A stretch of DNA of 64,000 nucleotides from NCBI GenBank assembly GCA_001782235.1, contig MFOC01000003.1, positions 47,851 to 111,850 of the forward strand, written 5' to 3'. A program made the translations under genes and the position numbers. This DNA comes from Candidatus Levybacteria bacterium RIFCSPHIGHO2_02_FULL_40_18. GTDB lineage: Bacteria; Patescibacteriota; Microgenomatia; Levybacterales; GWA1-39-11. Positions within the stretch are counted from its first letter, which is position 1. Each line of letters starts with the position of its first letter. The notes under the pieces are model-generated. The model did not search any database, had not been told where the DNA came from, and saw only the letters and a list, made by a program, of their open reading frames with translations. Of the stretch, positions 6,850 through 61,793 are shown piece after piece.

Positions 6850-7519
6850 GCACCGTAAGATAAACAAACCCTGCCGACATCATGAAACCGAGCGACGAAG
6901 ATTTTCTTTTGACTCTTCCACGAAGAGCAGTAAAGGAGGTACTAAAACTACTCAAAACGCGGCAAGAGCAACGGCGCCAACCTCATACGAACGGTAAGAC
7001 AGCGAAGGAGAAGGAATGGCCTAAAAGACACATTAGTTCCCGATAGCACTGGAAACCCCCGCCATGGAAAAAACCACGAAAACACTGTCTGAATGGTGGA
7101 TGGAAGCCGGTAGATACCGGAGGCTCTTCATCTTCAGGCAGAATATCCACTCCAATAAGCAAGAAGGAGGCAACGGTGCAAGGAAAAGGCCGAAACCACG
7201 GAAGAAGCAAGATCTCGATCAAAAGAGGTCTGGCTAAGACTCGCTACCCTCAGCGCTCTGGAAAACACCAAGCTGAGGCACGAGCCTTACGTGAAGGTCA
7301 CCCAAGCACCCCCTCGGGGAGGACGAATGGCAAAAAGACCGTTCAACGCAACGGGCGGCAAGCGCAAAGCCCGAAAGCCCCCGCCCCCGTGGCACCGTAA
7401 GTCCAAGAGACATCGGAAACGCCACGCGCGCGATCATGGGAACTTCGGGAACGTTCCGAGGAGAAGCCAGCTGTGATAACCATCGATACATAGTTTCATA
7501 GCGCACGGTAAGTGAATCC

Positions 7520-44308: not shown

Positions 44309-44309
44309 T

Positions 44310-45065
44310 TTATTTACCGAGTGCTATCATATATAAAGGGTATTCCCTAATATTCTCAATATCAAGCAGGGATATAATTTGAGATTCAATAAATCCACCA
44401 ATTGGGCAACTTCTTAAACCTAATTCAGTTGCCAGAAGACATATATTTTGGGATAAGTGTCCGGCCTCAATTAACATATACCTGAACTCCCGATCTCCAT
44501 ATTTTATTCGACTCCTATCAGGGATGCCTGTAATTATTATTAAAAAATTTGCATCTAATATCCACTTTTCATTACCCGTACAGGCAAGAACCCATTCCCC
44601 CATGTCTTCTATCAGTAATGCCTCTAGCGCGTTCTCTTTTACATTATAATGATACAATCCCTGCTTTAAACTTTTTACGCCTAATGGAATTAGATATACT
44701 TCTAACGGATATCTCGCTCCCGCAGAGGGGTATGACCGTCTTGAATCATCCATATCTTTTGGCTCAAAAATAAGCCCGGCAACTGTGTATATTAAACTAG
44801 ATAATAACTTGAATGATATATCTTTTTTAATAAACAATCTTGTTGATCGCCTGCTTGATAATGATTTTATTTTTTTAGATAACGCTTTTTCAAGGACAAT
44901 TTTCGGCATACGAGGATAGGTTTTAAAATGAATTGTTATCCACTCTTGGGGAATGACTTCAACACTGTCCTCAAAACTTATGTTTTTAGACTGTTCATAA
45001 AAAACATCAGAGGCGTTTGCTTGTCCGTTAATAAATTCCGCAATTTTCTTTTTCAGTTTTTTCAT
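44310..45065 (-). CDS. SagB-type (nitroreductase-fold, FMN) dehydrogenase, azoline oxidase-like
   Basis: ARYPLEVYLIP...GLYHYNVKENALE...FRYMLIEAGHLSQNICLLATELGLRSCPIGGF are diagnostic SagB/McbC-type motifs. Confidence 0.7.
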   Translation of the reverse strand: MKKLKKKIAEFINGQANASDVFYEQSKNISFEDSVEVIPQEWITIHFKTYPRMPKIVLEKALSKKIKSLSSRRSTRLFIKKDISFKLLSSLIYTVAGLIFEPKDMDDSRRSYPSAGARYPLEVYLIPLGVKSLKQGLYHYNVKENALEALLIEDMGEWVLACTGNEKWILDANFLIIITGIPDRSRIKYGDREFRYMLIEAGHLSQNICLLATELGLRSCPIGGFIESQIISLLDIENIREYPLYMIALGK

Positions 45066-46396
45066 AAAAAGGGATGGGGAATATTATTCAGCTTTTCCTC
45101 TGTCTTGGGCTTGTATCCCATTTTTTCGGGAGAATCAAACAATCTCATTTTGCCAAAATATTTATACCGTTCATCCAGATAAATAGGTTGTAATTCGGGC
45201 GAAACTACCTTAACCACGTGGACTGGATAATCTTTAAATATTGAACTTGTAATTTCTGCGAAGTAGAAATTTACTCCTTTATCTTTTAGGATTTTGGCGA
45301 TTTTATATAAGCTCTCTTGTGCTTCTGTAGTTCTAGAATTGAGTTTGATATTAATTAAATCGCTATTAAGCCAGAAATTTAGATTTTTAATCATTTGTGG
45401 AGAAAACCAATAATATGCTCTGTCCTCTATGGTTCTGATGTCACTTCTTGATTTGTACCTTTTTAGGTTTCTACCAAGAATGACTTTGTCCCTGGTCCAT
45501 GATCTTGTCATCAAGGACTCTTCTATAGCTCCTACTATTACGTTTCTTTTGTCTAGCCCTGCCTTTAAACCAACTGATATTGACGGACCCAATCCTGTTC
45601 TATCTATAATTATTGCACAGACTGAAAAAATTGATAAATCATTGGTAATATTAATCAAATAAACTTCGAGTTGGTACCTTTCTATTTTATTAATAATATC
45701 ATTAATATATAAATCCCTAATACAATTAAGATTTATTCTTCTGCACGGAATTTTATTGAGGTATGCTACCATGAATGAATCTCTTTCGATTAACTCACAA
45801 ATTCCTCTATATATCGCTGTTTCTAGAGTGTCAGCACATGCAGCTCCTGAAGATGTTCCAAATTGAAGCATAGGCTCCATTCTCTCCCATTTATAAGGTA
45901 CATAAATTAATTGCGCTGGCAACAAAAAGTTATTTCCAATAAAAACATTTTTTGATTCGACCCATGAGTAATTTGCATATAAATATTCTTCTTTTTTTAA
46001 TTTTAATCTTTTGATTTGGGGATCTGAGAAAGATAAAAACAAGAGAGGACTAAGCATTTTACTTTTCTCATATTTCTTATTTTTTATAAGAGGTCTCTCT
46101 CTGTCATCTGAAAGAGAAAATCTCTCTATTAATTCGCCAAATAGCTTTTGCAATGCAGATGTTTGTGAAAATGATGTTCCACTAGCAATAGCATCTTCTG
46201 TTCCCTTATTCTTTCTCTCTTTAAATGAAGTATTATATTGAAAAATTTTAGGCTCATCATTATAAAAAGGGGCTCTATGAAAACCATGGAATATATGAGG
46301 ATATTTTTTAAGGAGATCAAAACCTATATCAATTATATCTTGTGAGTTTTTACCCATAAAGGAATACTTAAGCCTGTTTTGGGGCAGATAATCCAA
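45062..46396 (-). CDS. YcaO-domain protein (ATP-dependent cyclodehydratase or amide-activating enzyme)
   Basis: ASGTSFSQTSALQKLFGELIERFS and FGTSSGAACADTLETAIYRGICELIERDSFMVAYLNK (ATP-binding E-x2-ER motifs). Ends ...NIPHPFL. Translationally coupled to the downstream dehydrogenase (4-nt overlap). Confidence 0.8.
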   Translation of the reverse strand: MDYLPQNRLKYSFMGKNSQDIIDIGFDLLKKYPHIFHGFHRAPFYNDEPKIFQYNTSFKERKNKGTEDAIASGTSFSQTSALQKLFGELIERFSLSDDRERPLIKNKKYEKSKMLSPLLFLSFSDPQIKRLKLKKEEYLYANYSWVESKNVFIGNNFLLPAQLIYVPYKWERMEPMLQFGTSSGAACADTLETAIYRGICELIERDSFMVAYLNKIPCRRINLNCIRDLYINDIINKIERYQLEVYLINITNDLSIFSVCAIIIDRTGLGPSISVGLKAGLDKRNVIVGAIEESLMTRSWTRDKVILGRNLKRYKSRSDIRTIEDRAYYWFSPQMIKNLNFWLNSDLINIKLNSRTTEAQESLYKIAKILKDKGVNFYFAEITSSIFKDYPVHVVKVVSPELQPIYLDERYKYFGKMRLFDSPEKMGYKPKTEEKLNNIPHPFL

Positions 46397-46404
46397 GCGT
46401 TATT

Positions 46405-46620
46405 TTATTTACCTTCTCGTATCTCAACGGTTATTCTGCAACGTTGAGTGCAATGTCCAGGAACAGGAGAACGACAAGGACCGGGAGGGGGATTAGGAGG
46501 AAGCGGCGGCGGAGTTCCGCATCTCGAAACCATAGATTCTCCTTTCAATTCACTTGGAAGCCCTGATGTGAATTCCTTCGCATCAGCAATGACTCTTTCA
46601 ACTGTCTCTATATTTGACAT
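46405..46620 (-). CDS. Candidate RiPP precursor peptide (71 aa) with a Pro/Cys-rich C-terminal core
   Basis: MSNIETVERVIADAKEFTSGLPSELKGESMVS | RCGTPPPLPPNPPPGPCRSPVPGHCTQRCRITVEIREGK. Near-consensus SD (taAGGAGGTGAtaacta ATG). Ends 9 nt upstream of the YcaO start. Confidence 0.5.
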   Translation of the reverse strand: MSNIETVERVIADAKEFTSGLPSELKGESMVSRCGTPPPLPPNPPPGPCRSPVPGHCTQRCRITVEIREGK

Positions 46621-46936: not shown

Positions 46937-47230
46937 TTACTCGGCGATACCGTCGTAGATAAATTTCTTAATCAGTGCCTGATATGGAATATCCATTTTG
47001 TGAGCCTCTACTTTAACCCTATCGATTAAACCAACCGGTAGGCGAATTGTAATAGGCTTAGTAGTAAGTTTTAAATTTGGGAAAATTACATGCCTTGCAG
47101 TTGAATAATCTACATACTCTGTTGAGTCTACTTTTTGCCAGAACTCTCTTTCCTCTTTTTCTGTTTTAAATTTTGGTATTGGCTTTAGCTTTTTTTTCTT
47201 CATACAACCTCCTTTCTTTTTTATTTGCAA
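46937..47230 (-). CDS. brnA: BrnA-like antitoxin (RHH/CopG-type). Probable true start at the internal Met MKKKKLKPIPKF.
   Basis: EEREFWQKVDSTEYVDYSTARHVIFPNLKLTTKPITIRLPVGLIDRVKVEAHKMDIPYQALIKKFI matches the BrnA family pattern. Confidence 0.55.
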   Translation of the reverse strand: MQIKKKGGCMKKKKLKPIPKFKTEKEEREFWQKVDSTEYVDYSTARHVIFPNLKLTTKPITIRLPVGLIDRVKVEAHKMDIPYQALIKKFIYDGIAE

Positions 47231-47519
47231 GTCTTGCAGAAATTATCCTTATCTTGTTATCTCTTTTTGTAAATACCGTGAACAACGTTCTGTTATCATT
47301 TGACTTACCTATTCCTATAAATCTTCCTTCCTCCTTAGAATGTTTTATGTCATCTTGGAAAAAAAGATATTTATCAACAAATACTTCCTCTGCTTCTCTT
47401 GGAGTAATTCCGTGTTTTTGATAGCTTTTGTCAACATTCCACTTATCCCATTCAAATCCGGTAATCTTACTCAAATCCGTCACTGTACATATATTACATG
47501 TACAAGTACGTGTTGTCAA
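47166..47519 (-). CDS. brnT: BrnT-like toxin (DUF497 ribonuclease)
   Basis: FEWDKWNVDKSYQKHGITPREAEEVF...IRIISARLANKKERRLYEE matches DUF497 motifs. Confidence 0.6.
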   Translation of the reverse strand: MTTRTCTCNICTVTDLSKITGFEWDKWNVDKSYQKHGITPREAEEVFVDKYLFFQDDIKHSKEEGRFIGIGKSNDNRTLFTVFTKRDNKIRIISARLANKKERRLYEEKKAKANTKI

Positions 47520-47618: not shown

Positions 47619-48260
47619 TCACTCTAATTTTCCCTTCATATAGGTTTCGACCTCTTGTTTCAAGGTCGAAGTAATTTGTTCGTAAGAGTAATTTTCTCCT
47701 ATAAATTCTATCGGCGTTTGTTCAAGGTCTTCAAAATATACGAGTTGCTCAAGAAATTGAACCTCAACAAAAAAACTACCGCATTTTTTTACTGCGAATT
47801 TTACTATATCGTCAAGTGTCAACAGTCTCTTTTTTAGAACAACAAAAATATCAACATAATCGCGCCAGGTTGCTCGTCTTCCGATGGTGTACGCTTTGTC
47901 AGCTGCTATATCCTTTACACTTGCTAAAGCAAGGTACGGTGTTTCTACTCGCGGGAACGCGGGTTTGAAATCCTGCACAACAAATGTTATGCCAATATTG
48001 CTTTTAAGAATAGTAAAGGTTACTTGCTCGGAAGTATTCCATTTGTAGATAACTTTCCCGAATTTCTCCCTTATTTTATTTTCTAATGATTTTTTAATTG
48101 GATCGTCTACAAATATATCAAAGTCATAAGAAGTTCGATGCCCTATTTGAAGTGCAAGGGCGGTTCCGCCGGCAAGATATCCTTCATCTCGGAAGTCTAC
48201 TAGCTTCTTTAATATCTCTCTGCGGTCATGGTCTAATATCTCGAGGAATATTTTTGACAT
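47619..48260 (-). CDS. Nucleotidyltransferase, AbiEii/AbiGii toxin family (DUF1814)
   Basis: RREILKKLVDFRDEGYLAGGTALALQIGHRTSYDFDIFV is the conserved AbiEii N-terminal block. Confidence 0.6.
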   Translation of the reverse strand: MSKIFLEILDHDRREILKKLVDFRDEGYLAGGTALALQIGHRTSYDFDIFVDDPIKKSLENKIREKFGKVIYKWNTSEQVTFTILKSNIGITFVVQDFKPAFPRVETPYLALASVKDIAADKAYTIGRRATWRDYVDIFVVLKKRLLTLDDIVKFAVKKCGSFFVEVQFLEQLVYFEDLEQTPIEFIGENYSYEQITSTLKQEVETYMKGKLE

Positions 48261-48537
48261 ATAAGAGTTCGCTCATATCACGATCTTCAAGATTTAGGAG
48301 TATATTTTTAACGAAATAAAAGCGTGCTTTTCGATAATCTTTAAATGCCGTGGTTGTGAAAGTTTTTATAATCTGTGAGGCTCCATATTTCTCAAACAAC
48401 CAAAGGATTTCATCCAATCCTCCGTAAGATAGTATCTGATGAATAATATAGTTCTTATCCCGTTCAGAATTGAGCTTACGCACACCACTGGACCATAAAA
48501 CGCTTTGAAGTTTCTGAGGAATTTTTTTTTGCTGCAT
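48226..48537 (-). CDS. Hypothetical small protein upstream of AbiEii. Possible cognate antitoxin-like partner.
   Basis: Overlaps the AbiEii start. No confident domain. Confidence 0.25.
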   Translation of the reverse strand: MQQKKIPQKLQSVLWSSGVRKLNSERDKNYIIHQILSYGGLDEILWLFEKYGASQIIKTFTTTAFKDYRKARFYFVKNILLNLEDRDMSELLYVKNIPRDIRP

Positions 48538-49591: not shown

Positions 49592-49792
49592 ATGGGACAA
49601 CAACTCATATTTTTAAAACGAGCTAACAAAATCTTAAACAGGACTTTTGTATCGATTATTCTTGTAATCTTCTATATCCTAATTATTGGAATTGCAAGAG
49701 TTATTTACACAATTTCGCAAAACAAAAGCGCAAGACAAACCACTTACTGGCAGGAGTCAAAAAAGCGTATAAACCTTGCCTCCGCGTACTAA
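49592..49792 (+). CDS. Small membrane protein upstream of the carbamoyltransferase (hypothetical)
   Basis: One TM helix FVSIILVIFYILIIGIARVIY. The stop overlaps the next start. Confidence 0.25.
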   Translation: MGQQLIFLKRANKILNRTFVSIILVIFYILIIGIARVIYTISQNKSARQTTYWQESKKRINLASAY

Positions 49793-51479
49793 TATGTATA
49801 TTTTGGGTATTTCTTCCTATTACCATGATAGCGCGGCGGCGCTTTTAAAAGACGGCAAAATTGTTGCGGCGGCTGAGGAGGAGCGCTTTACCAGAATAAA
49901 ACATGACAATTCTTTCCCCTCAAAAGCTATAGATTTTTGTCTTAAGAATGCGGGGATATCAAAAATCGATTTAGAGTACGTTGCTTATTATGAAAAGCCA
50001 TTGCTTAAGTTTGAACGTATACTCGAGACTTTTGTTGCAACATGGCCTTTTTCCCTCAAGCCTTTTATTAAAGCCATACAGGAGTGGCTTGGCGAGAAAA
50101 TAAAAGTTGAGCAAAAGATTAGAAAAAAGCTTGACTTTAAAGGCAAAATATACTTTGTCCCACATCACCTGTCTCACGCAGCTGCCGCTTTTTATCCCTC
50201 ACCTTTTAAAAAGTCGGCAATATTAACGGTAGACGGCGTTGGCGAATACCAAACTATAGGAATCTGGAAAGGAATGGGAAATAAAATAAAACCAATAAAG
50301 GAAATTAACTTCCCTCATTCTCTTGGGCTCTTATACTCAACTTTTACAGCATTTTTAGGATTTCGCGTGAATGATGATGAATACAAAGTTATGGGGATGG
50401 CAGCATACGGTAAGCCTTCCTTTAAAAACAGTATCTATGAATTAATTGATATAAAAGATGACGGTAGTCTTCAGCTCGATTTGTCATATTTTGGATATCG
50501 AGAGTCTTTTCAAATGTGGAATAAGAAGTTTGAGCAATTATTTGGAGAGCCGCGAAACTTAAAAGCACCAATAACACAGCGCCACAAAGACATAGCAGCA
50601 AGTATTCAAACCGTGACAGAGGAAATATATTTTAAGATCTTAAAAAACTTATATTTAACTTCGAAAATCAATAATTTATGTATTGGCGGAGGAGTTGCTC
50701 TTAACGCCCTTGCTAACGGCAAAATCTATAAAAATACGCCTTTCAAAAAGGTTTTCATACTTGGACCCTCAGGTGACAGCGGTGGAGCAGTGGGAAGCGC
50801 GCTTGAAGTCTACAATAGGCTCTCTAAAAAGGCAAAAAGACGCTTTATAACTCATTTAAAATTTGGCTCGAAATATAAAGATAACGAAATTGAAATGATT
50901 CTTAAAGCAAAAAAATTAACATATAAGAAGTGTTCCTCCAAAACGCTTATCAAAAAAACGGCTAAATTACTTTCAGAAGGCAGAATTATTGGATGGTTTC
51001 AGGACAGGATGGAGTTTGGACCAAGGGCGCTAGGCAGTCGATCCATTCTTTCTGCTCCCTTCCCCTTCTCCATGAAGGAAGAGGTTAATGTTGTCAAAAG
51101 AAGGGAACAATTTAGACCTTTTGCAGGTTCAATATTGTTAGAAAAAGCGGTTAATTACTTTAAAATCCCAAAAACCCAAAACGAATTCCCGTTTATGAAC
51201 TTTTGTTTTCCTGTTCGAGAAATAAAAATAAAAGATATTCCAGCAATAACGCATGAGGACAGAACCTGCCGCATTCAAACTGTAAGTAAAAACGATGGTG
51301 CTTATTATTCTTTGATTAGGGAATTCGAAAGGTTAACCAGCATTCCCGTTATACTCAATACAAGTTTTAATCTTCGCGGCGAACCAATAGTTGAGAATCC
51401 CGAACAAGCAATTAATGACTATACAAAGACAAAAATTGATTCTCTTGTAATAGGCAGTTTTATCGTGTATAAGAAATGA
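49776..51479 (+). CDS. Carbamoyltransferase (NodU/CmcH/NovN family)
   Basis: MYILGISSYYHDSAAALLKDGKIVAAAEEERFTRIKHD. HHLSHAAAAF. C-terminal YrdC-like domain. Confidence 0.85.
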   Translation: MPPRTNMYILGISSYYHDSAAALLKDGKIVAAAEEERFTRIKHDNSFPSKAIDFCLKNAGISKIDLEYVAYYEKPLLKFERILETFVATWPFSLKPFIKAIQEWLGEKIKVEQKIRKKLDFKGKIYFVPHHLSHAAAAFYPSPFKKSAILTVDGVGEYQTIGIWKGMGNKIKPIKEINFPHSLGLLYSTFTAFLGFRVNDDEYKVMGMAAYGKPSFKNSIYELIDIKDDGSLQLDLSYFGYRESFQMWNKKFEQLFGEPRNLKAPITQRHKDIAASIQTVTEEIYFKILKNLYLTSKINNLCIGGGVALNALANGKIYKNTPFKKVFILGPSGDSGGAVGSALEVYNRLSKKAKRRFITHLKFGSKYKDNEIEMILKAKKLTYKKCSSKTLIKKTAKLLSEGRIIGWFQDRMEFGPRALGSRSILSAPFPFSMKEEVNVVKRREQFRPFAGSILLEKAVNYFKIPKTQNEFPFMNFCFPVREIKIKDIPAITHEDRTCRIQTVSKNDGAYYSLIREFERLTSIPVILNTSFNLRGEPIVENPEQAINDYTKTKIDSLVIGSFIVYKK

Positions 51480-51483
51480 CAGG

Positions 51484-52077
51484 ATGCCCTATCTTCTTCA
51501 AAGAATTATTGCTCTTTTCTTTCTACTATTATCCACGCCACTTCTTGTACTGCTCTTTTTAGCCGTTAAATGGGATTCAAGTGGGCCTTTTATTTTTAAG
51601 CAAAAACGCGCAGGAAAGAACAAAAAACCTTTTACTATGTACAAGATTCGGACAATGGTTGAAGGGGCTGAAAAGCTTCAATCGAGGTACGCGAAACTAA
51701 ATGAAGCAAGCGGGCCGGTTTTTAAAATTCGAAATGATCCGCGCTACACAAGGGTCGGAAAAATCTTAGCTCGAATCGCAATCGATGAACTCCCTCAGCT
51801 TTGGAATGTGGTCAAGGGTGAAATGGCGCTTGTCGGACCCCGCCCCCTTCCTTTATACGAGGCGAACAAAGTTCCGAAGAAATTCGAACAAAGGTTCTCA
51901 GTTCTTCCCGGAATGACCTCACCTTGGATCATTAAGGGTGGTCATGGTTTGAAATTCGATCAATGGATGAAGCTCGATTTGGAGTATGTAAAGAAAAAAT
52001 CCCTTTTATTTGAGCTTAAAATTCTTGCGCAGACAGCATTATTAATAATAAGGGTCGCAATGAATTCGGGGCGATGA
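51484..52077 (+). CDS. Bacterial sugar transferase (polyprenyl-phosphate glycosyl-1-phosphate transferase, small WbaP C-terminal type)
   Basis: PFIFKQKRAGKNKKPFTMYKIRTM...GPVFKIRNDPRYTRVGKILARIAIDELPQLWNVVKGEMALVGPRPLP. Confidence 0.8.
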   Translation: MPYLLQRIIALFFLLLSTPLLVLLFLAVKWDSSGPFIFKQKRAGKNKKPFTMYKIRTMVEGAEKLQSRYAKLNEASGPVFKIRNDPRYTRVGKILARIAIDELPQLWNVVKGEMALVGPRPLPLYEANKVPKKFEQRFSVLPGMTSPWIIKGGHGLKFDQWMKLDLEYVKKKSLLFELKILAQTALLIIRVAMNSGR

Positions 52078-52087
52078 GACTTAGTTT

Positions 52088-52492
52088 CTAATTTTTCTTA
52101 TCTTCAAGCGGCGAAATATCTATCGATTGTTTTTGGTAAGAAAGTGCTACATCAAAATGATCAAAGAATCCTTTTTGGCCTAAGATACCATGCCCAAATT
52201 CACTTATCTCTGCAAAAATTACTTTGGCTACATAAGTCTTGTCACTTATTCTTATTTCTATCTCTCCCCAGAAACCCTTAACTTGCTTCTTGCCTACTCC
52301 GACAAACAGAATTCTATCCTTTTTTGATAGAGTTAAACCTAGTTTCTTGGCAATTTCTAAACTGAAAATGCAATAGTCAGCGCCGGAATCTATCAAGCCA
52401 GAATATAAAATAACGGTTGTAGAAGATTTAATAATTATGGGAATAATAGGTCTTCTAATTTTTGAAGTAATCTCAAGATATGAAAAAGTCAT
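52088..52492 (-). CDS. Retropepsin-like (clan AA) aspartyl protease
   Basis: LIDSGADYCIF contains the D-S-G-A active-site signature. About 130 aa. Confidence 0.5.
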   Translation of the reverse strand: MTFSYLEITSKIRRPIIPIIIKSSTTVILYSGLIDSGADYCIFSLEIAKKLGLTLSKKDRILFVGVGKKQVKGFWGEIEIRISDKTYVAKVIFAEISEFGHGILGQKGFFDHFDVALSYQKQSIDISPLEDKKN

Positions 52493-52740
52493 TTACTGAA
52501 AGCAAAGGGGCCAACTATGGGGAGGACCTTCTTTGGTATCTGAGTCACCAGAGGCAGATCAAAACCCTTTTCTTTTGCCTTTTTTAAAACTTCATCGAGA
52601 GTTTTGGATGAGGCAACAACCTTATTACTATTTGGTCCCGCCAAAGCTACCCACTTACCTTTATAATCTCTATACACTTTTTTCATGTCAACCGTTTTCA
52701 TGTTTAATTTTATTATAGCAGACACTTTACTTCCGTTCAA
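52489..52740 (-). CDS. DUF5678-like small protein paired with the retropepsin-like protease
   Basis: YKGKWVALAGPNSNKVVASSKTLDEVLKKAKEKG pattern. 4-nt overlap with the downstream protease. Confidence 0.35.
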   Translation of the reverse strand: MNGSKVSAIIKLNMKTVDMKKVYRDYKGKWVALAGPNSNKVVASSKTLDEVLKKAKEKGFDLPLVTQIPKKVLPIVGPFAFSK

Positions 52741-52868: not shown

Positions 52869-53672
52869 ATGGATGAAATTTACGTAAATATAGCCGATTT
52901 CAATATACTAATCAAAATCCAGCCGCAGGAAACTACCAACAATCCGCCTTACGATTTCATCAGAAACAGACTGTTAACCGATTTGGTTTCTTATTTAGGT
53001 CAATTTATAATTTTAGAAAAGCCTGGAAAAGTTGATTTTGAAATTAATTTTATTGAAGCATGGAACTTACAAATACTGCGAGTCAAAAGTGACAATATCA
53101 GTTACATTCCTCTTTATGAAGAAATTTCGTCGTCTAAGTTTTTAACCTATTTTTTAAACAGCATCTATCAATTCCAGTTAATCTTAAAATACGCTGTCCA
53201 TGAACTTTTGGACAAATCCAGTGGGTTTTTAATCCACTCTTCCGCCGTCAAAATCAACAACAAGGCTTACTTCTTCTTAGGCAAGTCTGCGGCTGGTAAA
53301 TCGACCATTGCCACAATGCTTGCTGACAGATACCCAAAAATCGCAGATGATACAAGTCTTGTTAAAAAAGAGGGTAATCAATTTTTTTTCTACCAAACTC
53401 CATTTTTTGACAAAAATTGGGTCAATAAACACTCCGAGAGATTAAAAATGGGCAAAATGTTTTTTTTAAAAAAAGCCAATTTCTTTAAAGTAGAGAAAAT
53501 CGAAGATAAAGAGCAAATTCTCAACTATTTCTTGAAGGGTTATGTCGTTAACCTCAACAAAATCTCAACCAAAAATGTACTAAAATTTGTCAATAAATTC
53601 GACAACTTCTACATGCTTTACTTTGCAAAAAACCCGGAGAAAACAATAAGACTAATTGAATCCCTTAAATGA
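52869..53672 (+). CDS. HPr-kinase/phosphorylase-like P-loop protein (the RiPP-associated HprK-like kinase type)
   Basis: FLGKSAAGKSTIATMLADR P-loop in the C-terminal half. 267 aa. Overlaps the start of the PqqD-like gene. Confidence 0.4.
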   Translation: MDEIYVNIADFNILIKIQPQETTNNPPYDFIRNRLLTDLVSYLGQFIILEKPGKVDFEINFIEAWNLQILRVKSDNISYIPLYEEISSSKFLTYFLNSIYQFQLILKYAVHELLDKSSGFLIHSSAVKINNKAYFFLGKSAAGKSTIATMLADRYPKIADDTSLVKKEGNQFFFYQTPFFDKNWVNKHSERLKMGKMFFLKKANFFKVEKIEDKEQILNYFLKGYVVNLNKISTKNVLKFVNKFDNFYMLYFAKNPEKTIRLIESLK

Positions 53673-53920
53673 TCAAACTCAAAAAAGGCATAGTCTCTCA
53701 AAAAGTCGGTCAAAAAACCACCATTTTTGACGGCGAGAAGTCAGTTCTTTATACTTTTAACGAAACGGCATCATTCATATTTGACCAGCTCAAAAAAGAG
53801 GCAAAATTGGAAAAAATTGTAGATTTGATGGCAAAAAAATTTAATGTCAAAAAAGAGACTGCAAAAAACGACGTTGAAGAATTTGTCAAAACCTTAAAAG
53901 CTAAAAAAATTGTTTCCTAG
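53669..53920 (+). CDS. PqqD-family protein, RiPP recognition element (RRE)
   Basis: LYTFNETASFIFDQLKKEAKLEKIVDLMAKKFNVKKETAKNDVEEFVKTLKAKKIV matches the PqqD fold pattern (L..N.TA..IW..L.G..T..EI...L...Y.V..E.A..DV..F...L). Confidence 0.55.
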   Translation: MIKLKKGIVSQKVGQKTTIFDGEKSVLYTFNETASFIFDQLKKEAKLEKIVDLMAKKFNVKKETAKNDVEEFVKTLKAKKIVS

Positions 53921-55362
53921 TAGCCGATTGACCTAAGATCACCTGCGCTGTCATCTTCGGTAGAAAACTGTCCGGGTACTTCATTGCTCTTCCATTCAAT
54001 TGGCAGGTTGTAATCGGAAAGATATTCTAAAAGGTCATCCCGGAGTTTTCCCAGTTCCTTTGTCCTTTCGCCGGCCAAATTTTTTGTCTCGTTGGGATCG
54101 GCCACAAGGTCATACAGCTCTTCGTGCCAACTTTCAAGAAGACAGGACTGCGGCAAGGAATAGATATACTTTAAATTGTCCCTGACAATTGCAAACTTGG
54201 AAAAATAGCTGTTGGCAAAAATAGCCCTTTTTCTGGGCGCCGGTATTATTTTGGAGAATTTACCGAATTGTCCTGCAAAACTCTTTCCGTCGAAACTGCC
54301 CTTTTTATAATCAATGCCCAGAAAATCCAAAATGGTCGGCAAAATGTCAACATCTTGTATCAAAACGTCTGATTTTTCCCCCGATCTGCCCTTGGCTGGA
54401 TCAAAAATTATAAGCGGAATCTTGATCGATGAATCGTAAAGAACCTGCCTGTGGTTGAAATAATAGTTGTGATCAAATCCTTCTCCGTGGTCGCCGTATA
54501 AAACCACCAGGGTGTTTTTATCAAGACCCAGCTCTTTAAGATTATCCAAAATTTTACCTACCAGTCTGTCGGCCGCAGCAACCTCGCCATCGTAAAGAGC
54601 CTCCATAAGCTCTATCCTGTCTTGAGGAACCGGATTATTTTGGCAGGATTGATACTGGGCCCGAAGTTCTTCAAGTTCCTCAAGGTTTTTGCCAGAAATT
54701 TCATCGCAGAATTTACTGTTAAATTTGCACCTCAAACCCCCGGGGGCAAAGTAGGGTGCGTGGGGATCGACAAGATGCACCCAGAGAAAAAACCGCCCTC
54801 CATCCTTGCTGCTTTTCAAAATGTCGGCAGAACTTAAAATAAATTTCTCGTAATCTGCCCTTTCGGTCATAGTAAACCTTTCGTTATATTCCGCCTTTGC
54901 GCCATTGTAGTAAAACGATTTGAACTCATGGGTATTGAATACCTCAAACCCCTGATCCAAAGCACTGCCGATGGTGGAATAACCCGCGGTAAAAAACCCG
55001 TTTTGGGCAAGAATACTTGTCAAAGTTTTGTTGTTCTCACTGACCAGAAGACCTGAATTTGAAATAATTCTGGTCTTTGCCGGATCCTTGCCGGTAAAAA
55101 GAGCCGCCATCGAAGGATGAGTCATGGGAACGGCTGTAGCGGCGTTGGTAAAGACTGCTGCGCTTTTTGCCCACTTGTCAATATTGGGAGTCGTATCTTT
55201 TCCATAGCCATATACGCCCATATGGTCAGGGCGTAGGGTATCAATTGAAATTAGAAGAAGATTTTTAGGGTGAGTTGGGGTAAATACGAATTTCCAAACG
55301 AGAGCGAGAAACAAAAAAAGTGTTGAATATATTACTATCCGCCTAAATTTAACTTTGAGCAT
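53917..55362 (-). CDS. Sulfatase-like (PF00884) exported hydrolase or transferase, paralogue of 29481..30899
   Basis: LLISIDTLRPDHMGVYGYGKDTTPNIDKWAKSAAVFTNA. YGDHGEGF. The nucleophile region reads ATAVPMTHPSMAALFTG, with Thr where sulfatases have the formylglycine Cys. Confidence 0.7.
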   Translation of the reverse strand: MLKVKFRRIVIYSTLFLFLALVWKFVFTPTHPKNLLLISIDTLRPDHMGVYGYGKDTTPNIDKWAKSAAVFTNAATAVPMTHPSMAALFTGKDPAKTRIISNSGLLVSENNKTLTSILAQNGFFTAGYSTIGSALDQGFEVFNTHEFKSFYYNGAKAEYNERFTMTERADYEKFILSSADILKSSKDGGRFFLWVHLVDPHAPYFAPGGLRCKFNSKFCDEISGKNLEELEELRAQYQSCQNNPVPQDRIELMEALYDGEVAAADRLVGKILDNLKELGLDKNTLVVLYGDHGEGFDHNYYFNHRQVLYDSSIKIPLIIFDPAKGRSGEKSDVLIQDVDILPTILDFLGIDYKKGSFDGKSFAGQFGKFSKIIPAPRKRAIFANSYFSKFAIVRDNLKYIYSLPQSCLLESWHEELYDLVADPNETKNLAGERTKELGKLRDDLLEYLSDYNLPIEWKSNEVPGQFSTEDDSAGDLRSIGY

Positions 55363-55366
55363 AAAT

Positions 55367-56620
55367 TTATCTTACCATCTTTATGCTTTTTACGCGATTT
55401 AAGAAAACCCAAATTATCGTATAAATCACCTGTTTGTCTAAAAAAACCATTACCTTTCTAAAAAAGGGCTCCGGCGATAAATAGAATAAATTTTTAAAAC
55501 GCTCAATTCCCGAATTAATCCTTTGTTCTTCATCAAATATATTTAGCTTATAAAGCATTTTTCGAACTCTGGCAAAACTGCTATCAGGTCTAATGTCATT
55601 CAGAAAATCACGATCAAAATTTAGTCCGTAGTATTTTTGCAAGATAAGAAAAACAGGATATATGAAATTCATAAGCTTATATTCTTTAGCGAGTTTTGCA
55701 ATTTTAGAAAAATTTTGTTGTTCTTTTGAAATAATGCTCTTCATAAAATCATATCTATAAGCCCCTTTAAAATTATGATGGTAAAGATGAAGGGCTAGAT
55801 AAATTAATAAGTTTTCAGAAGAAAGAATTGGAAATTTATGACTCCAAACACTAACATCTCTTTTTTCTCTTAGAAATTTTCCACTTAAACTATTCAAAAG
55901 ACTCTGCGGGTAAAGAGCATTAAGTTCCCCAAGTTGTGTCATCATAAATACAACCTCAAGATGAATATCGAAAAAGATTGGAAATCCTTTAACTATTTTC
56001 AAGAAATTAACTTCCGGACTTTTATTTTTAAGTCTTCCCAGAGTCTCGGACAATGATGAGTCGAATTCTTTGAAGCCTAATTTTCGTAAAATCGTCTTTG
56101 CGCGAGAAAAAAATTTTGGGCTAATTAAAATGTCGCAGTCGGCATAAATGCGTCTCGGGTGCTTGCCCTCATGGTAAAGGTGGAGAGGCAGACCTTTGAG
56201 AAAAACGAATTTTATTCCTGTCTTCTCAAGCGTTCTTTTAACTTTTACTATTTCGCCAAAATATAGTGTTGATTGAATAAGATAAAGGTCGTCGATGCTA
56301 AATTCGTTCCTTCCCCTTTTTATTTTATATACAACACCGATTACGTTTTTTGGGTAAATCTTCCCATCGGAAGTTTGATTATTCTCCCCTTTTGTTATTA
56401 AGTACTTATCTGTTTTGTAAACCACTCTGTGGGTGAAGATCCTGTCGCCCTGCCTGCCGGCAGGCAGGCCTTTTCGCACGCAGACAATATCATTAACGGC
56501 AATTCTGTCAAATCGTTTTTTTGCAAGATAAACGACGTCGCCGTCCCAAAGTAGCGGGAACATACTCTCACCGTAAGTCTTAAACGCAGAAATCTTTGAA
56601 ATATTTGCAACCTTAATCAC
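55367..56620 (-). CDS. Fusion protein: N-terminal S24/S26-type peptidase-like domain plus an uncharacterised nucleotidyltransferase (PF14907-like) domain
   Basis: N-terminus YGESMFPLLWDGDVVYL is LexA/signal-peptidase-like (GxSMxP). The remaining ~300 aa resemble the uncharacterised nucleotidyltransferase family found in RiPP clusters. Confidence 0.4.
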   Translation of the reverse strand: MIKVANISKISAFKTYGESMFPLLWDGDVVYLAKKRFDRIAVNDIVCVRKGLPAGRQGDRIFTHRVVYKTDKYLITKGENNQTSDGKIYPKNVIGVVYKIKRGRNEFSIDDLYLIQSTLYFGEIVKVKRTLEKTGIKFVFLKGLPLHLYHEGKHPRRIYADCDILISPKFFSRAKTILRKLGFKEFDSSLSETLGRLKNKSPEVNFLKIVKGFPIFFDIHLEVVFMMTQLGELNALYPQSLLNSLSGKFLREKRDVSVWSHKFPILSSENLLIYLALHLYHHNFKGAYRYDFMKSIISKEQQNFSKIAKLAKEYKLMNFIYPVFLILQKYYGLNFDRDFLNDIRPDSSFARVRKMLYKLNIFDEEQRINSGIERFKNLFYLSPEPFFRKVMVFLDKQVIYTIIWVFLNRVKSIKMVR

Positions 56621-56687: not shown

Positions 56688-56891
56688 CTAGGAGGCACTA
56701 TTGGTCATAAGGCACAGAGCACAGGTGGTAGAACCACATGAGGCACAGGTGATAAGAGTGTTACATGAACCTTGCGCATACACAGACGATCCGAAGAGTT
56801 CTTCCGCTGAATCGATAAACCTGCTACTTAAAAAGAAGTTTATCTTGACTCTTTGCTCTTTTATCGCAGGCTTGCTGTATTTTTTTTTCAT
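56688..56891 (-). CDS. Candidate RiPP precursor peptide (67 aa) with a Cys/Ser/Thr-rich core
   Basis: MKKKYSKPAIKEQRVKINFFLSSRFIDSAEELFGSSVYA | QGSCNTLITCASCGSTTCALCLMTNSAS. The start overlaps the stop of the upstream 168-aa gene (ATGA). Confidence 0.55.
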   Translation of the reverse strand: MKKKYSKPAIKEQRVKINFFLSSRFIDSAEELFGSSVYAQGSCNTLITCASCGSTTCALCLMTNSAS

Positions 56892-57394
56892 AGTTTTATT
56901 ATCTCTATTTCAAGTCTATTGTATGATGGATCGGCAAACAAGTCAATTGTTTCCTCTATTATCAACTCATCTCCCGGCTTAAGGTCTGAAAAAATCATGG
57001 GAATATTCACTCCAAGTATTTTTTTATATATTTTAAGGGCTTCAAGATCCGTTTTTCTAAAAAGCATATAGATGCCAGAGCCGCTCTTGCCGCCAACAGG
57101 ACTAATGAATAAACCCTTTTCATACTCTAATCTCCCTTTTATTCCCGGAGTGCCTAATGCTTCCTTAACTATTCCTCTGTATTCACTTTTCACAACTGAC
57201 GAGGCTAAAATATCCTTATTGGCATTGAGGTAATTAAGAACACTGTAATTAATATCGCTTGATGAGACTCTACTGACTTGATTTTGCCGTGCGGCTTCCT
57301 TAGATGAGGGTTGATAGAGAAATAAATATCCAACTTCTATTATAGTAAGTATAAAAAGCGTGATTGAGACAGCAATTATAATTCTTGTTAACAC
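56888..57394 (-). CDS. Membrane-anchored hypothetical protein (168 aa) in the YcaO locus
   Basis: N-terminal TM RIIIAVSITLFILTIIEVGYLFLY. No recognisable domain. Confidence 0.4.
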   Translation of the reverse strand: MLTRIIIAVSITLFILTIIEVGYLFLYQPSSKEAARQNQVSRVSSSDINYSVLNYLNANKDILASSVVKSEYRGIVKEALGTPGIKGRLEYEKGLFISPVGGKSGSGIYMLFRKTDLEALKIYKKILGVNIPMIFSDLKPGDELIIEETIDLFADPSYNRLEIEIIKL

Positions 57395-57429: not shown

Positions 57430-58209
57430 TCAATGGCCTCCGGCTTTATTTCCAACACCAAGCATGTAAACCACGGTTTCATCAAGGCCGTCAACGTCAA
57501 GCAATCTATTTACATTATCGTCCATATATCCGCCCACGCCGCAAATTCCTAAACCTAGTGCACTTGCGAGTAAATAAAAGTTCTGCGCCAAATGTCCCGC
57601 CTCCACCAAAACGTGTCGGTACCCTCTGTCCCCATATTTTATGGTATTTCTTTTAAAAATTGCGGTAATTATTATCAAACATCCTGCGTTTTTTGCAAAG
57701 GGAACCGATGTAAGCAATTTTAGATTTTTTTTCTTAAAATCAGTCAGCTTTTCAAGACTGTTCGTCTTAACATAATAGTGGTACACACCTTTTGGCAAAT
57801 CCATATTTAAAGATAAGATATAAACTTCAAGCGGGAAACGTGCGCCACCTGAGGGATAAAATCTTCTTTGGGCAAAATCCGAATTTTTGTTAAGTCCTGC
57901 GCTGTAGTATAAAAAGCTATTCAATTCCCCAAGACCTATCGGCTCTTTTGAAAATTCACGTGTCGATTTTCTATCTCTAAGCGCTTGCGCAAACGTAACT
58001 CTTTTGCTAAATGTGGGTTTTGGGAGTCTTATTTCTTCAAATCTGGCATATCCCTTATAGTAAATTGTCCCCCATTCCTTGGGCCAAGATGGCCTGGGCA
58101 GATTTCTGGCCAGTTTTTTAATCTTGGTTTTTGAGTGGAATTTCTCAAACTCGGCAGTGGGCTTTCCCAGAAGGCCGGCGATATTCTTTACACGTGTGGT
58201 TTTTTTCAT
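57430..58209 (-). CDS. SagB-type (nitroreductase-fold) dehydrogenase
   Basis: ARFPLEVYILSLNMDLPKGVYHYYVKTNSLEKL...YRHVLVEAGHLAQNFYLLASALGLGICGVGGY. Confidence 0.75.
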   Translation of the reverse strand: MKKTTRVKNIAGLLGKPTAEFEKFHSKTKIKKLARNLPRPSWPKEWGTIYYKGYARFEEIRLPKPTFSKRVTFAQALRDRKSTREFSKEPIGLGELNSFLYYSAGLNKNSDFAQRRFYPSGGARFPLEVYILSLNMDLPKGVYHYYVKTNSLEKLTDFKKKNLKLLTSVPFAKNAGCLIIITAIFKRNTIKYGDRGYRHVLVEAGHLAQNFYLLASALGLGICGVGGYMDDNVNRLLDVDGLDETVVYMLGVGNKAGGH

Positions 58210-59480: not shown

Positions 59481-59617
59481 CAGATTGCCATATATATTAT
59501 CAATTAAAAGTTGACCTGTAAAGAATGAATAAAATCAATGGCCTTTTGAAAGAGTTCTTAAATGCATAAGTTTTACCAAGGATAAAAGCTTTTAAGGGCC
59601 TGGCTAAAACTCAGGCG

Positions 59618-59716
59618 AAACTTGTTAAAAGCAGGCGCTATTCTTTGCGGCCAGCGGATTTCACCCTCCCCATAGCGTCTGCTTTTAAAGAGGAAATTGT
59701 TGGGAAACACACCGCT
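59618..59716. repeat. About 95-bp direct repeat A. It is a 3' fragment of a paralogue of the 60465..61793 gene. The minus strand encodes ...FPNNFLFKSRRYGEGEIRWPQRIAPAFNKF...
   Basis: About 90% identical to 60511-60609, which is the genuine 3' end of 60465..61793. Confidence 0.6.
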
Positions 59717-60142
59717 TCATTCTAAACTCCTCAGGTACTGCAAAAATTGCGCAGGCCTCATAGTTATAATGTTTAAATCTTCTTTTATCTTATCGGTGTT
59801 GAAATCTTTTTGATTATAAGTGATGAGAAATTTAGCTTTTGACTTATATGCTCCCGCTACGATATGCGCGTCATTTGAATCTTCAACAAAGTTATTATAT
59901 TTTTCCCTTATTTTCTTAAGTGAACTTTTAATCTCAATCTTTAAGAATCTTCTCTCAATAAGCTCTTTCAGGTCTTGCTCTTTTATATTCAGTTCTTTTG
60001 ACACCCTTTTTAACTCCTCCAAAGATATATTTGAAATAAAACGATTGGCACCGCTTTTATGAATAAGGGAATAGGCAGCGCCTGTTTTTGACAGAAGAGA
60101 AGAAATTACAACATCTGAATCAATAAAGACTGTTGGGGTCAT
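59717..60142 (-). CDS. PIN-domain (VapC-like) putative toxin
   Basis: N-terminal VFIDSDVVISSLL with the conserved Asp. About 140 aa. Confidence 0.55.
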   Translation of the reverse strand: MTPTVFIDSDVVISSLLSKTGAAYSLIHKSGANRFISNISLEELKRVSKELNIKEQDLKELIERRFLKIEIKSSLKKIREKYNNFVEDSNDAHIVAGAYKSKAKFLITYNQKDFNTDKIKEDLNIITMRPAQFLQYLRSLE

Positions 60143-60146
60143 TTAT

Positions 60147-60410
60147 TTAAGCCGCCCGGGCTTTTTTAAGATATTGCCGCACGCGCGGTATAACTTTCAT
60201 GTCTTCTTGTTCTTTAGAAAATAAATCATAGTCAAGCCCTGTGATCATAAATGATACGGAACTTGCGGGAATTCTATACACACGGCCAAGTTTTTTAGCA
60301 ACAATCTCCCCTCGAGCGATAAGCTCATAAACCGTATTTTTTGATAATTGAAGGGCCTCGGCAATTTGTTCGGGGGTATACATTTTTACAATATTAGCAT
60401 TACTTATCAT
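60147..60410 (-). CDS. HTH (excisionase/MerR-type) DNA-binding protein. Putative antitoxin of the PIN protein.
   Basis: YTPEQIAEALQLSKNTVYELIARGEIVAKKLGRVYRI. 4-nt gap to the downstream PIN gene. Confidence 0.5.
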   Translation of the reverse strand: MISNANIVKMYTPEQIAEALQLSKNTVYELIARGEIVAKKLGRVYRIPASSVSFMITGLDYDLFSKEQEDMKVIPRVRQYLKKARAA

Positions 60411-60464: not shown

Positions 60465-61793
60465 TTACCTGGGGTAAAGTTTGCCAAGGATTTGATGCAG
60501 GTTATATGTAAACTTATTAAAAGCAGGCGCTATTCTTTGAGGCCATTTGATTTCATCCTCCCCGTAGCGTCTGCTTTTAAAGAGGAAATTGTTGGGAAAC
60601 GCACCGGTTTGTTTTGTGGTATATGGACTTACAATGTCCCATACAACCTCACCTTTGTTGGTTACTTCGAATATATGTCCCCTAGTCCCGTCAGTGATTA
60701 GCGTATTTCCATTTGAAAGTCTTTGCGCGCCCCCTACGATTGGCGCATAAAATTTAATTTTGTCAATTGGCCCCTCTCCTGCATCAAACTGCCATACAAC
60801 TTTGTTTGTTTTGGGGTTCACTTCAACTGCCCTTGATCCGAAACTCGGAAATGGCGCCGGGAGCCTATCATACCCGTTATCAAATACAAGAATGTTTCCG
60901 TTTTCAAGCAATGTCGGGTCATGCTGAAGGCTGAACATTCCTTTTGGAGATCGCCAGATTATTCCCCCGTCTTCTTTTCGAATTATATAAACAGTACTAG
61001 TTGTCCGCATGCTTAAAAGATACGCAGGTGTGCCATCGATAGGATTTTTTTCCATATACTTCAACCCGTTAGTGTAGGTCCATCCGTACCGAGGCAGAAG
61101 CGGGGCAATTACGTCCATTTGCGGATCCATATGCTCATATGAGTGCCAAGACCAAACAGTCTCTCCTTTTCGATTTATCTCGACTATATTATCCGACCAA
61201 ATGAGACCGCCTTCCCCGCCGGGCCGGAGACCCTCTGGGCCGGAGGCCATCTCTGTACCATCAACGCCACCTTGAATTTGCCTTGCGATCTCAGGTGGTG
61301 TTTTCTCCCAGAGAGCAAAAGCAAGGTTTCCGTTAGGCAGTATTGCGACATCATGATGCATTGCCTCATTCTTATATTCCCAAACCACATTCGATTTCCA
61401 GTCAAGTTCTTGAATAATTCCGGTATTGCCTCCCGGAGGGAAAAACTGGCTATATTTTGGCTGCTCCATTACCGAGAGTAATTTCCCGTCAGGCTCAAGA
61501 ACCGAGTACAGAACCTGATGATTGGTTGTCCATGTATGTACGGGGTAGCCCGCCATATCGAGTAAATAAACTTTGCCCTCGATTTTTGAATCGCTTAAAA
61601 GACGGTTATATGGAGAAATTAACGTGTAGCCCGGAAAGACCTTTTCCTCATCGAGAATCGGCAGTGATTTAAAGATGCTGTATGAATTGTCTATGGGTTT
61701 GAAAACGAATATGAAAGTCAGTATGTAAACTGCGCCTAAAATCAATAGAATATAAAGAAGTTTTTGAGGAGGATTAAAACCTTTGTTTTCCAC
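60465..61793 (-). CDS. Membrane-anchored beta-propeller protein, arylsulfotransferase (ASST)-like. It carries an in-frame GC-rich insert.
   Basis: N-terminal TM. Repeated hydrophobic-Gly blades (NGNILVFDNGYDR, NGNTLITDGTRGHIFEVTNKGEVVWD). Insert EMASGPEGLRPGGEGG at 61217-61252. Confidence 0.4.
   Translation of the reverse strand: MENKGFNPPQKLLYILLILGAVYILTFIFVFKPIDNSYSIFKSLPILDEEKVFPGYTLISPYNRLLSDSKIEGKVYLLDMAGYPVHTWTTNHQVLYSVLEPDGKLLSVMEQPKYSQFFPPGGNTGIIQELDWKSNVVWEYKNEAMHHDVAILPNGNLAFALWEKTPPEIARQIQGGVDGTEMASGPEGLRPGGEGGLIWSDNIVEINRKGETVWSWHSYEHMDPQMDVIAPLLPRYGWTYTNGLKYMEKNPIDGTPAYLLSMRTTSTVYIIRKEDGGIIWRSPKGMFSLQHDPTLLENGNILVFDNGYDRLPAPFPSFGSRAVEVNPKTNKVVWQFDAGEGPIDKIKFYAPIVGGAQRLSNGNTLITDGTRGHIFEVTNKGEVVWDIVSPYTTKQTGAFPNNFLFKSRRYGEDEIKWPQRIAPAFNKFTYNLHQILGKLYPR
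61217..61252. repeat. Third copy of the gggccggagRc x2 GC-rich in-frame mini-element
   Basis: ccgccgggccggagaccctctgggccggaggccatc. Confidence 0.6.

Follow-up and report, generated by a model that had tools for sequence, protein, structure and literature searches.

In a 64-kb stretch of the genome of Candidatus Levybacteria bacterium RIFCSPHIGHO2_02_FULL_40_18 (positions 47,851 to 111,850 of contig MFOC01000003.1, the whole of which is called the window here), an open reading frame (ORF) of 67 codons on the minus strand, at 56688..56891, is a real, conserved protein-coding gene. It lies among genes for a YcaO cyclodehydratase and a SagB-type dehydrogenase and, judged from sequence alone, its product is probably, and we hold this with some confidence, the precursor of a ribosomally synthesised and post-translationally modified peptide (RiPP) of the linear azol(in)e-containing peptide (LAP) or thiazole/oxazole-modified microcin (TOMM) type. 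Because it includes no E1/ThiF-like partner for YcaO and is accompanied by accessory genes like those of lasso peptides, the LAP system would be an unusual variant.

An earlier, sequence-only reading had described the ORF as a leader of 39 amino acids (aa) followed by a 28-aa core with 5 Cys, 5 Ser and 5 Thr, and this description holds in every particular. The product, MKKKYSKPAIKEQRVKINFFLSSRFIDSAEELFGSSVYAQGSCNTLITCASCGSTTCALCLMTNSAS, divides into the leader MKKKYSKPAIKEQRVKINFFLSSRFIDSAEELFGSSVYA and the core QGSCNTLITCASCGSTTCALCLMTNSAS, in which 15 of the 28 residues (Cys, Ser or Thr) are heterocyclisable. The leader motifs are YxxPxI (Y5, P8, I10), FF and R..DS, with V-Y-A at −3 to −1 of the junction with the core. 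The ATG start codon shares the sequence ATGA with the TGA stop of the upstream gene for a 168-aa membrane protein (56888..57394), the preceding in-frame stop is 18 nt back, and no other start codon lies between that stop and the ATG. The coupling of the precursor to the membrane-protein gene, as proposed earlier, is borne out by this stop/start overlap, which is also kept in relatives. In a scan of the 644 stop-to-stop ORFs of ≥40 aa found in six frames of the window, the precursor ORF had the highest content of Cys, Ser and Thr per 28-aa stretch among the listed ORFs in which a stretch of that length holds 5 or more Cys; the mean Cys content of the window's long ORFs is 0.9 %. Four non-coding-looking frames of the window nevertheless reach 6–7 Cys per 28 aa. 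The composition is notable and suggestive, not decisive, and the decisive support for the gene comes from conservation.

A word-indexed homology search with the single 67-aa peptide gave no match, and an exhaustive HMMER search was needed. Using phmmer against 1.84 billion representatives, 14 matches were obtained at E<1e-3, of which 13 were small peptides or fusions to Hint domains with the same leader; P0004, an 813-aa repeat protein, was dropped as a compositional false match. A profile search with the precursor family gave 13 matches and extended the set, and at least 20 non-redundant relatives carry the shared leader and hypervariable cores. Loci were also retrieved using YcaO as the anchor (one from a genome collection and 21 from metagenomes), and in those of them that keep the ORF the YcaO proteins are 29–46 % identical to that of the window. 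In one of these, L001, from a Patescibacteria metagenome-assembled genome (YcaO 33 % identical), the order YcaO, SagB, membrane protein, small ORF is as in the window, and the small ORF of 55 aa (MIKKSKKRYQKPMIKSEKIKVSFFMSNRYKDSIDSLIQPNLYLAQSNCDTTACDT) starts at the ATGA overlap. Precursor copies were also found in the YcaO-retrieved metagenome loci L004, L005, L006, L007 and L012. When the leader hidden Markov model was tested on 32 sequences, members had E values ≤7e-9 and all others ≥0.28, with one copy per locus. Hence the ORF, for which a search of related genomes had been recommended, keeps both its position and its leader sequence across divergent relatives.

The pattern of substitution is that of a translated sequence in the pair compared at the DNA level. 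L005 and L025 share 78.6 % DNA identity, and their precursor genes differ at 30 codons, 21 of them by synonymous and nine by non-synonymous changes; third codon positions take 25 of the 35 substitutions, and the core has ten synonymous changes and no non-synonymous ones. An antisense ORF (56701..56982) is present in the window. However, stops interrupt every antisense frame in all six of the homologous loci examined and this ORF is therefore window-specific and spurious, as the sequence-only reading had judged it to be.

The alignment of 19 members gave the leader consensus MKKKYxKPxIKxxKIKxNFFLSxRFxDS...AQS, in which P8 is invariant, Y5, K7, F20 and D27 are nearly so, and position 10 is I, L, V or F. 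Composition was determined for 20 non-redundant members divided at the conserved junction. The leaders have no Cys in 815 residues and 16 % Lys, and the cores have 17 % Cys, 19 % Ser, 11 % Thr, 21 % Gly and 0.2 % Lys, so that Cys, Ser and Thr together make up 47 % of the cores, or 68 % with Gly. A conserved leader ahead of a hypervariable core, the arrangement looked for, is thus what the family displays, the cores varying yet always being rich in Cys, Ser, Thr or Gly. At the junction, −1 is Ala in 19 of the 20, −3 is V, I or L in 16, and +1 is Gln in 14, and the pattern (V/I/L)-(Y/F/L)-Ala fits the −3/−1 rule of signal peptidases. In a test for a Sec-type signal peptide, the 30 residues before the junction were found to be broken by K, E, R and D throughout; as it is charged along its length (KEQRVK...DSAEE) and includes no hydrophobic h-region, the leader is not a Sec signal. 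Neither Pfam nor NCBIfam accounts for the window peptide, the former giving a chance IBR match only and the latter no family, and none of the curated RiPP precursor models (e.g. heterocycloanthracin TIGR03601, NHLP, SCIFF) scored above cut-off. For the 19 family members, the best Pfam or NCBIfam results were single-member matches with E values of ~0.01 or weaker.

On the minus strand the genes run in the order YcaO, SagB-type dehydrogenase, membrane protein, precursor, a fusion of an S26 signal-peptidase domain to an NTP_transf_5 nucleotidyltransferase domain (here S26-NTP), and a sulfatase-family protein, with a 67-nt spacer between the precursor and the fusion gene (55367..56620) on the same strand. 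Genes for an ScmC-like protein (52869..53672) and a PqqD-family protein (53669..53920) lie on the plus strand and converge on this operon. The precursor had been placed last in the operon, which is incorrect, as it is the fourth of six co-directional genes and two more lie downstream. It had also been called unusual in its downstream placement; the precursor does lie downstream of the enzymes, but this is the rule for the family (the window, L001, L004, L005, L006, L007 and L012 all have the leader ORF downstream of YcaO-SagB) and no oddity of the window locus.

Linkage to the enzymes was also seen from the side of the precursor. Look-ups that began from precursor homologues only (P0008, P0019, P0021 and P0023), and hence are free of any YcaO bias, led in four of four cases to a position beside YcaO, nitroreductase, ScmC and NTP_transf_5 genes (loci L023/24, L025, L030 and L031), with PqqD in three of the four. 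In every locus with sufficient flanking DNA the precursor gene is next to YcaO and SagB, and most of the leader-bearing loci also have ScmC-like and S26-NTP genes, as most have PqqD. The YcaO-retrieved, leader-bearing loci that are long enough to show them include PqqD, ScmC or S26-NTP. In L010 and L015-L022, where the YcaO genes are of the YcaO2 type or more distant, no PqqD, ScmC or S26-NTP gene was detected next to them. An S26-NTP gene is present in L014, although its YcaO gene is of the YcaO2 type and the leader ORF is missing. The ScmC gene adjoins YcaO in L004 and L025; the two overlap in L012 and share an operon in L031. The membrane-protein/precursor pair has the stop/start overlap in the window, L001, L007 and L023, and is an adjacent pair in L031. 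Family conservation and the YcaO/nitroreductase linkage together support the earlier proposal that the ORF encodes a RiPP precursor belonging to the YcaO operon.

Two ORFs that were judged by eye to be transposase-like (224 aa at 6955-7629 and 125 aa at 7750-8127) part SagB from the membrane-protein/precursor pair in L007 (L007:6955-8127), and the pair downstream of them is intact with its ATGA overlap.

The solved structures closest to the window YcaO (Table 1) are those of the azoline-forming TruD, LynD and MusD. Its ExxER and ExxERD motifs (SLFEAMER and YEVIERD), the Mg/ATP ligands of YcaO enzymes, are invariant between the window and L001, and the C-terminus, PNPIPHPFL, resembles the PxPxP C-terminus of TOMM cyclodehydratases. 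Only ~66 residues precede the YcaO domain, which leaves no room for a fused recognition domain, and the protein has no fused E1-like domain or RiPP recognition element (RRE). The SagB gene overlaps the YcaO gene by 4 nt.

The S26 domain of the 417-aa fusion, of the endoplasmic reticulum/archaeal type, lies at aa ~15-100 with no N-terminal membrane anchor ahead of it, and scores 38.5 bits against TIGR02228 (cut-off 51.85). A profile of the N-terminal 100 residues matches human SEC11A (2e-5) and SEC11C (4.5e-5), and the alignment lines up GxSM (Ser19), HRV (His64) and KGDNN. Ser19, His64 and D85 are invariant in relatives, and the window has E79 for the first Asp. Because the precursor junction fits the −3/−1 rule, the leader is too charged and the domain includes no membrane anchor, we infer that the S26 domain is a cytoplasmic leader peptidase. 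In L001 (9693-9768), L025 (9783-9861) and L023 (12732-12789), the first ATG of the fusion gene is the Met codon of GxSM and, as the conserved KTFGxSM is in frame upstream, the true starts of these three genes are probably non-ATG; the public calls of L023 and L025 begin at this Met, and the catalytic Ser is clipped off.

The 168-aa membrane protein is modelled as an N-terminal transmembrane helix together with an OB-like barrel, and none of the structural neighbours of the model is informative. The sulfatase-family neighbour is also found in L001, L008, L023 and L025, and the PqqD gene in L001, L004, L007, L012, L023, L025 and L030. The top NCBIfam matches of the PqqD protein are to lasso-type PqqD chaperones, below the cut-off (41 vs 70 bits). 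PF27840 is recorded on a protein identical to the ScmC-like protein of the window.

Some relatives (L004:5870-6904, L012:8419-8970, P0010, P0012 and P0013) have the same leader and a very short core, e.g. AAGCTPSYSVSSGT or SGGG, with one or two Hint/intein-like domains directly after it, each of which opens with Cys and closes with HN. Pfam PT-HINT or Intein_splicing matches in these proteins range from ~1e-6 to 4e-25. As there is no nucleophile after HN, these domains more probably cleave themselves than splice. A literature search turned up no paper linking Hint domains with RiPP precursors.

The window system resembles known LAP/TOMM systems (microcin B17, streptolysin S, plantazolicin and phazolicin) in having a leader followed by a core rich in Cys, Ser, Thr and Gly, and a YcaO beside SagB. 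It differs from them in having a discrete PqqD in place of an E1-like C or Ocin-ThiF-like F protein, a leader family unrelated to the curated ones, a Sec11/SipW-type S26 domain, joined to a nucleotidyltransferase, as the candidate leader protease, and a precursor gene that follows the enzyme genes and is coupled to that of a membrane protein. According to Sharrar et al. 2020 (mBio; PMC7298704), 110 YcaO/nitroreductase LAP clusters occur in 93 genomes of the candidate phyla radiation (CPR), and in the example given there a peptidase gene accompanies YcaO and the nitroreductase, and the precursor is next to YcaO. Those clusters share with the present one the Microgenomates/Parcubacteria radiation and the YcaO and nitroreductase core, though the published layout fits the other YcaO cluster of the window (43034..46620) and not the precursor cluster. 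The text of that paper as read contains no description of the precursor leader family or of the PqqD/ScmC/S26-NTP set.

Lasso peptide systems with tailoring genes are a further point of comparison. In these, the C-terminal Ser receives a phosphate from an HPr-kinase homologue and the phosphate a hexose from a nucleotidyltransferase, which is at times fused to the leader protease (PMC8498205). As in paeninodin and pseudomycoidin, the window cluster has a leader with a motif of the YxxPx(L/I) kind and a stand-alone PqqD as candidate B1-like protein, a P-loop protein that may be HPr-kinase-like, a PF14907-type nucleotidyltransferase fused to a protease, and a core with a C-terminal Ser. Unlike them, it has an S26 protease domain and a YcaO/SagB catalytic core, and neither a lasso cyclase (asparagine-synthetase homologue) nor a B2 transglutaminase-type protease was found among the cluster proteins of the window or the related loci. 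The parallel between lasso tailoring and the combination of ScmC, S26-NTP fusion and C-terminal Ser is striking, but must be regarded as unproven because a C-terminal Ser is found in only three of the 20 family members. The SynChlorMet cassette (ScmA-F in TIGRFAMs) is similar in that the ScmC-like gene adjoins and overlaps a PqqD-family (ScmD-like) gene. However, the window proteins score far under the equivalog cut-offs (22 vs 125 bits and 21.5 vs 100 bits), the window cluster has no radical-SAM ScmE or ScmF, and the precursor is unrelated. No precedent for ScmC with PqqD, or for YcaO with PqqD and an HPr kinase, was found in a literature search, and a search for PF14907 gave nothing relevant. 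The precursor leader family and its gene set are thus previously uncatalogued, insofar as neither Pfam and NCBIfam nor the literature searched contained them.

Anything beyond the precursor of a YcaO/SagB-modified peptide is drawn from synteny, motifs and analogy, and a scheme for how the peptide might be made is set out here on that footing. PqqD would bind the leader via YxxPxI, by analogy with the binding of YxxPxL by lasso B1 proteins, and would in this way present the core to a YcaO that has no fused or adjacent E1/ThiF-like partner. The YcaO would then use ATP to turn Cys, and probably also Ser and Thr, into azolines, which SagB would oxidise to azoles. The Sec11/SipW-type S26 domain, acting in the cytoplasm, would cut after (V/I/L)-(Y/F/L)-Ala, leaving an N-terminal Gln in most members. 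A phosphate or glycosyl-phosphate may be attached by the ScmC-like protein and the NTP_transf_5 domain, whose counterparts modify the C-terminal Ser of some lasso peptides in this way. More speculatively, the membrane protein coupled to the precursor may have a role in export, immunity or extracellular unmasking, and so may the sulfatase-family protein, which is exported. The full proposal, of a distinct CPR RiPP variant that combines a partner-less YcaO/SagB pair with a lasso-like module (PqqD, ScmC and S26-NTP) and in which Hint fusions release or activate the core C-terminus, is tentative, and we would sooner expect some part of it to fail than all of it to hold.

Several observations weigh against the LAP/TOMM interpretation or against its individual parts. 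Canonical azoline-forming YcaOs need an E1-like or Ocin-ThiF-like partner, and none of either kind (SagC/McbB or Ocin-ThiF) was found using Pfam and NCBIfam in the window cluster or in any related locus, the relatives being checked in the gene tables of L023, L025, L026, L030 and L031; divergent SagC-like proteins can evade Pfam. The YcaO itself scores 184 bits against TIGR03604 (SagD family), for which the cut-off is 219, and has a weak match to the McrA-thioamidation YcaO model. With no canonical partner, it might perform thioamide or amidine chemistry, or it might use another partner. Cores are Cys-free in some members (L006/P0015 and P0021) and very short and fused to Hint domains in others, and the chemistry may vary between members of the family. 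The rarity of a C-terminal Ser, noted above, belongs here too. The roles suggested for PqqD, ScmC, S26-NTP, the sulfatase and the membrane protein are putative, being assigned by synteny and analogy. For the ScmC-like protein, the Hpr_kinase_C match is weak (0.013), its family profile finds Walker-A segments and weak PEPCK matches only among PDB sequences, and the single-sequence AlphaFold model was unusable (predicted local distance difference test score of 35).

Some of these points are what would be expected if the precursor is genuine and the YcaO makes something other than azoles, either thioamides or amidines, or if the main modifications are instead phosphorylation, nucleotidylation or glycosylation of Ser/Thr involving PqqD, ScmC and the nucleotidyltransferase. 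A canonical partner is seen in none of ~10 loci, the YcaO is below the SagD-family cut-off and weakly matches the thioamidation model, ScmC is close to YcaO in L012, L004, L025 and L031, and some of the Cys-free cores are rich in Ser/Thr. Nevertheless, we consider this unlikely. A SagB-type dehydrogenase, above the curated cut-off in the window, overlaps or adjoins YcaO in nearly every locus, and the sole role of such enzymes known to us is the oxidation of azolines to azoles. In addition, no TfuA or sulfur-delivery gene was seen in the loci, the nearest solved YcaO relatives make azolines, and the C-terminus of the YcaO is PxPxP-like.

A second alternative, which we rate lower again and as distinctly improbable, is that the N-terminal 40 residues are a sorting or secretion signal and the variable cargo is unmodified, as in disulfide-rich bacteriocins. 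SipW removes the signal of TasA, and there are parallels here in the junction that obeys the −3/−1 rule, the Sec11/SipW-type peptidase domain conserved in the cluster, the use of one leader ahead of very different cargo, Hint domains included, and the membrane protein translationally coupled to the precursor. However, the leader is charged and does not have an h-region, the peptidase domain has no N-terminal anchor, the gene set includes no conserved dedicated transporter, and the strict linkage to YcaO+SagB and PqqD would be left unexplained. Though the ORF was not called by public gene callers, matches nothing in Pfam or NCBIfam and has Cys counts like those of other non-coding frames in the window, a chance open frame, with the antisense ORF 56701..56982 or a non-coding spacer as the true feature, is effectively refuted by a leader protein conserved across loci with highly diverged DNA, the excess of synonymous over non-synonymous changes, the conserved ATGA coupling and the antisense stops in homologues.

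The precursor family, read here as that of an LAP/TOMM-type peptide, was found beside the same enzyme set in many CPR bacteria. CPR bacteria (Patescibacteria) have tiny genomes and are thought to be epibionts, and a conserved multi-gene investment in a peptide by such genomes therefore suggests a molecule relevant to host interaction or competition. One gene missing from its annotation is thereby added to a public genome, and the leader profile can be used to mine for small ORFs missed by gene callers. The system also provides a test case for a YcaO of the azoline-forming type working without a canonical E1/ThiF partner. Should the S26 domain indeed be the leader peptidase, it would be a new type of protease in RiPP maturation, and the relatives with Hint fusions point to a so far unexplored way of processing the precursor C-terminus which, if real, would represent a new mode of core release or activation.

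Table 1. Features of the precursor cluster and of the second YcaO cluster, in window coordinates
Feature	Position	Strand	Details
Precursor peptide gene, 67 aa + stop	56688..56891	−	ATG start; leader-profile match E = 5.8e-22
Leader region, aa 1-39	56775..56891	−	Family alignment and junction statistics
Core region, aa 40-67, QGSCNTLITCASCGSTTCALCLMTNSAS	56691..56774	−	5 Cys, 5 Ser, 5 Thr; C-terminal Ser
Promoter-like match TTGACT-17-TACAAT	56918..56946	−	Inside membrane-protein gene, ~27 nt upstream of precursor ATG
Single-pass membrane protein, 168 aa, OB-like beta-barrel domain	56888..57394	−	Stop overlaps precursor ATG
SagB-type FMN (flavin mononucleotide)-dependent peptide dehydrogenase (nitroreductase fold)	57430..58209	−	TIGR03605 144.4 bits (cut-off 78.4); PF00881 1.6e-24
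YcaO cyclodehydratase, 424 aa	58206..59480	−	PF02624 1.2e-46, full length
Promoter-like match TTTACA-17-TAATAT with TG	59494..59522	−	Just upstream of YcaO start; consensus match only
S26 signal-peptidase/NTP_transf_5 fusion, 417 aa	55367..56620	−	PF14907 2.4e-21; TIGR02228 9.6e-10
Membrane-anchored sulfatase/alkaline-phosphatase-superfamily protein	53917..55362	−	PF00884 1.8e-48
Stand-alone PqqD-family protein, candidate RRE	53669..53920	+	PF05402 1.3e-15
ScmC-like P-loop protein (GKSAAGKST), possibly HPr-kinase-like	52869..53672	+	TIGR04249 ScmC 7.8e-5
71-aa Pro/Cys-containing ORF, candidate precursor of second cluster	46405..46620	−	Called as gene in public assemblies
YcaO of second cluster	45062..46396	−	
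SagB-type dehydrogenase of second cluster	44310..45065	−	
M16 peptidase of second cluster	43034..44308	−	

The promoter-like match ahead of the precursor (56918..56946) agrees with the consensus at 10 of 12 positions, in a consensus scan that is no evidence of function. The consensus scan revealed no terminator-like site beside the precursor, and the spacer on its 3' side folds no better than shuffled sequence (z = 0.66); an attenuator or terminator between the precursor and the downstream genes is thus unsupported. Rfam and tRNA scans of the entire window gave no matches.

The membrane protein has a 100 % identical counterpart in the public record, 'hypothetical protein A3C30_03000' (Candidatus Levybacteria bacterium RIFCSPHIGHO2_02_FULL...), while YcaO corresponds to A3C30_03010 (OGH16118.1) and the peptidase fusion to A3C30_02995 (OGH16121.1). 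The locus tags and accessions of the flanking genes form an unbroken series, so that the 67-aa ORF is not entered in GenBank. An exact-sequence look-up of its product returned no record, which means that the ORF was not called rather than that it is absent; in identical contigs from other assemblies the precursor interval is likewise uncalled, and all of the cluster proteins are listed as 'hypothetical'.

A second, separate LAP-type cluster lies at 43034..46620 (minus strand) in the window (Table 1). Its M16 peptidase was considered as the leader peptidase for the 67-aa precursor and rejected, as it belongs to this other YcaO cluster, which has a candidate precursor of its own.

Two plus-strand genes recur as neighbours of the precursor cluster, one for a carbamoyltransferase (49776..51479) and the other for a Bac_transf sugar-phosphate transferase (51484..52077): Bac_transf is found in L001, L006, L007 and L025, the carbamoyltransferase in L025 together with Wzy_C, and Wzy_C also in L030. 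They may either tailor the peptide or be part of an adjacent envelope-glycan locus.

Upstream of YcaO, a 97-bp direct repeat (59618..59714 and 60510..60606, 92 % identical) flanks a toxin-antitoxin pair made up of HTH_17 (60147..60410) and PIN_3 (59717..60142). The repeat corresponds to the 3' end of an arylsulfotransferase gene (60465..61793), and the copy at 59573..59710 is a 45-codon remnant of it, which suggests that the toxin-antitoxin cassette was inserted with target duplication. The same arrangement of arylsulfotransferase, fragment and YcaO is found in L002. Further pairs, BrnT/CopG (46937..47519), DUF6922/AbiEii (47619..48537) and DUF5678 with an Asp-protease-like gene (52088..52740), lie between and inside the two peptide clusters, and the region, with its toxin-antitoxin and abortive-infection-like pairs, looks like a variable island.

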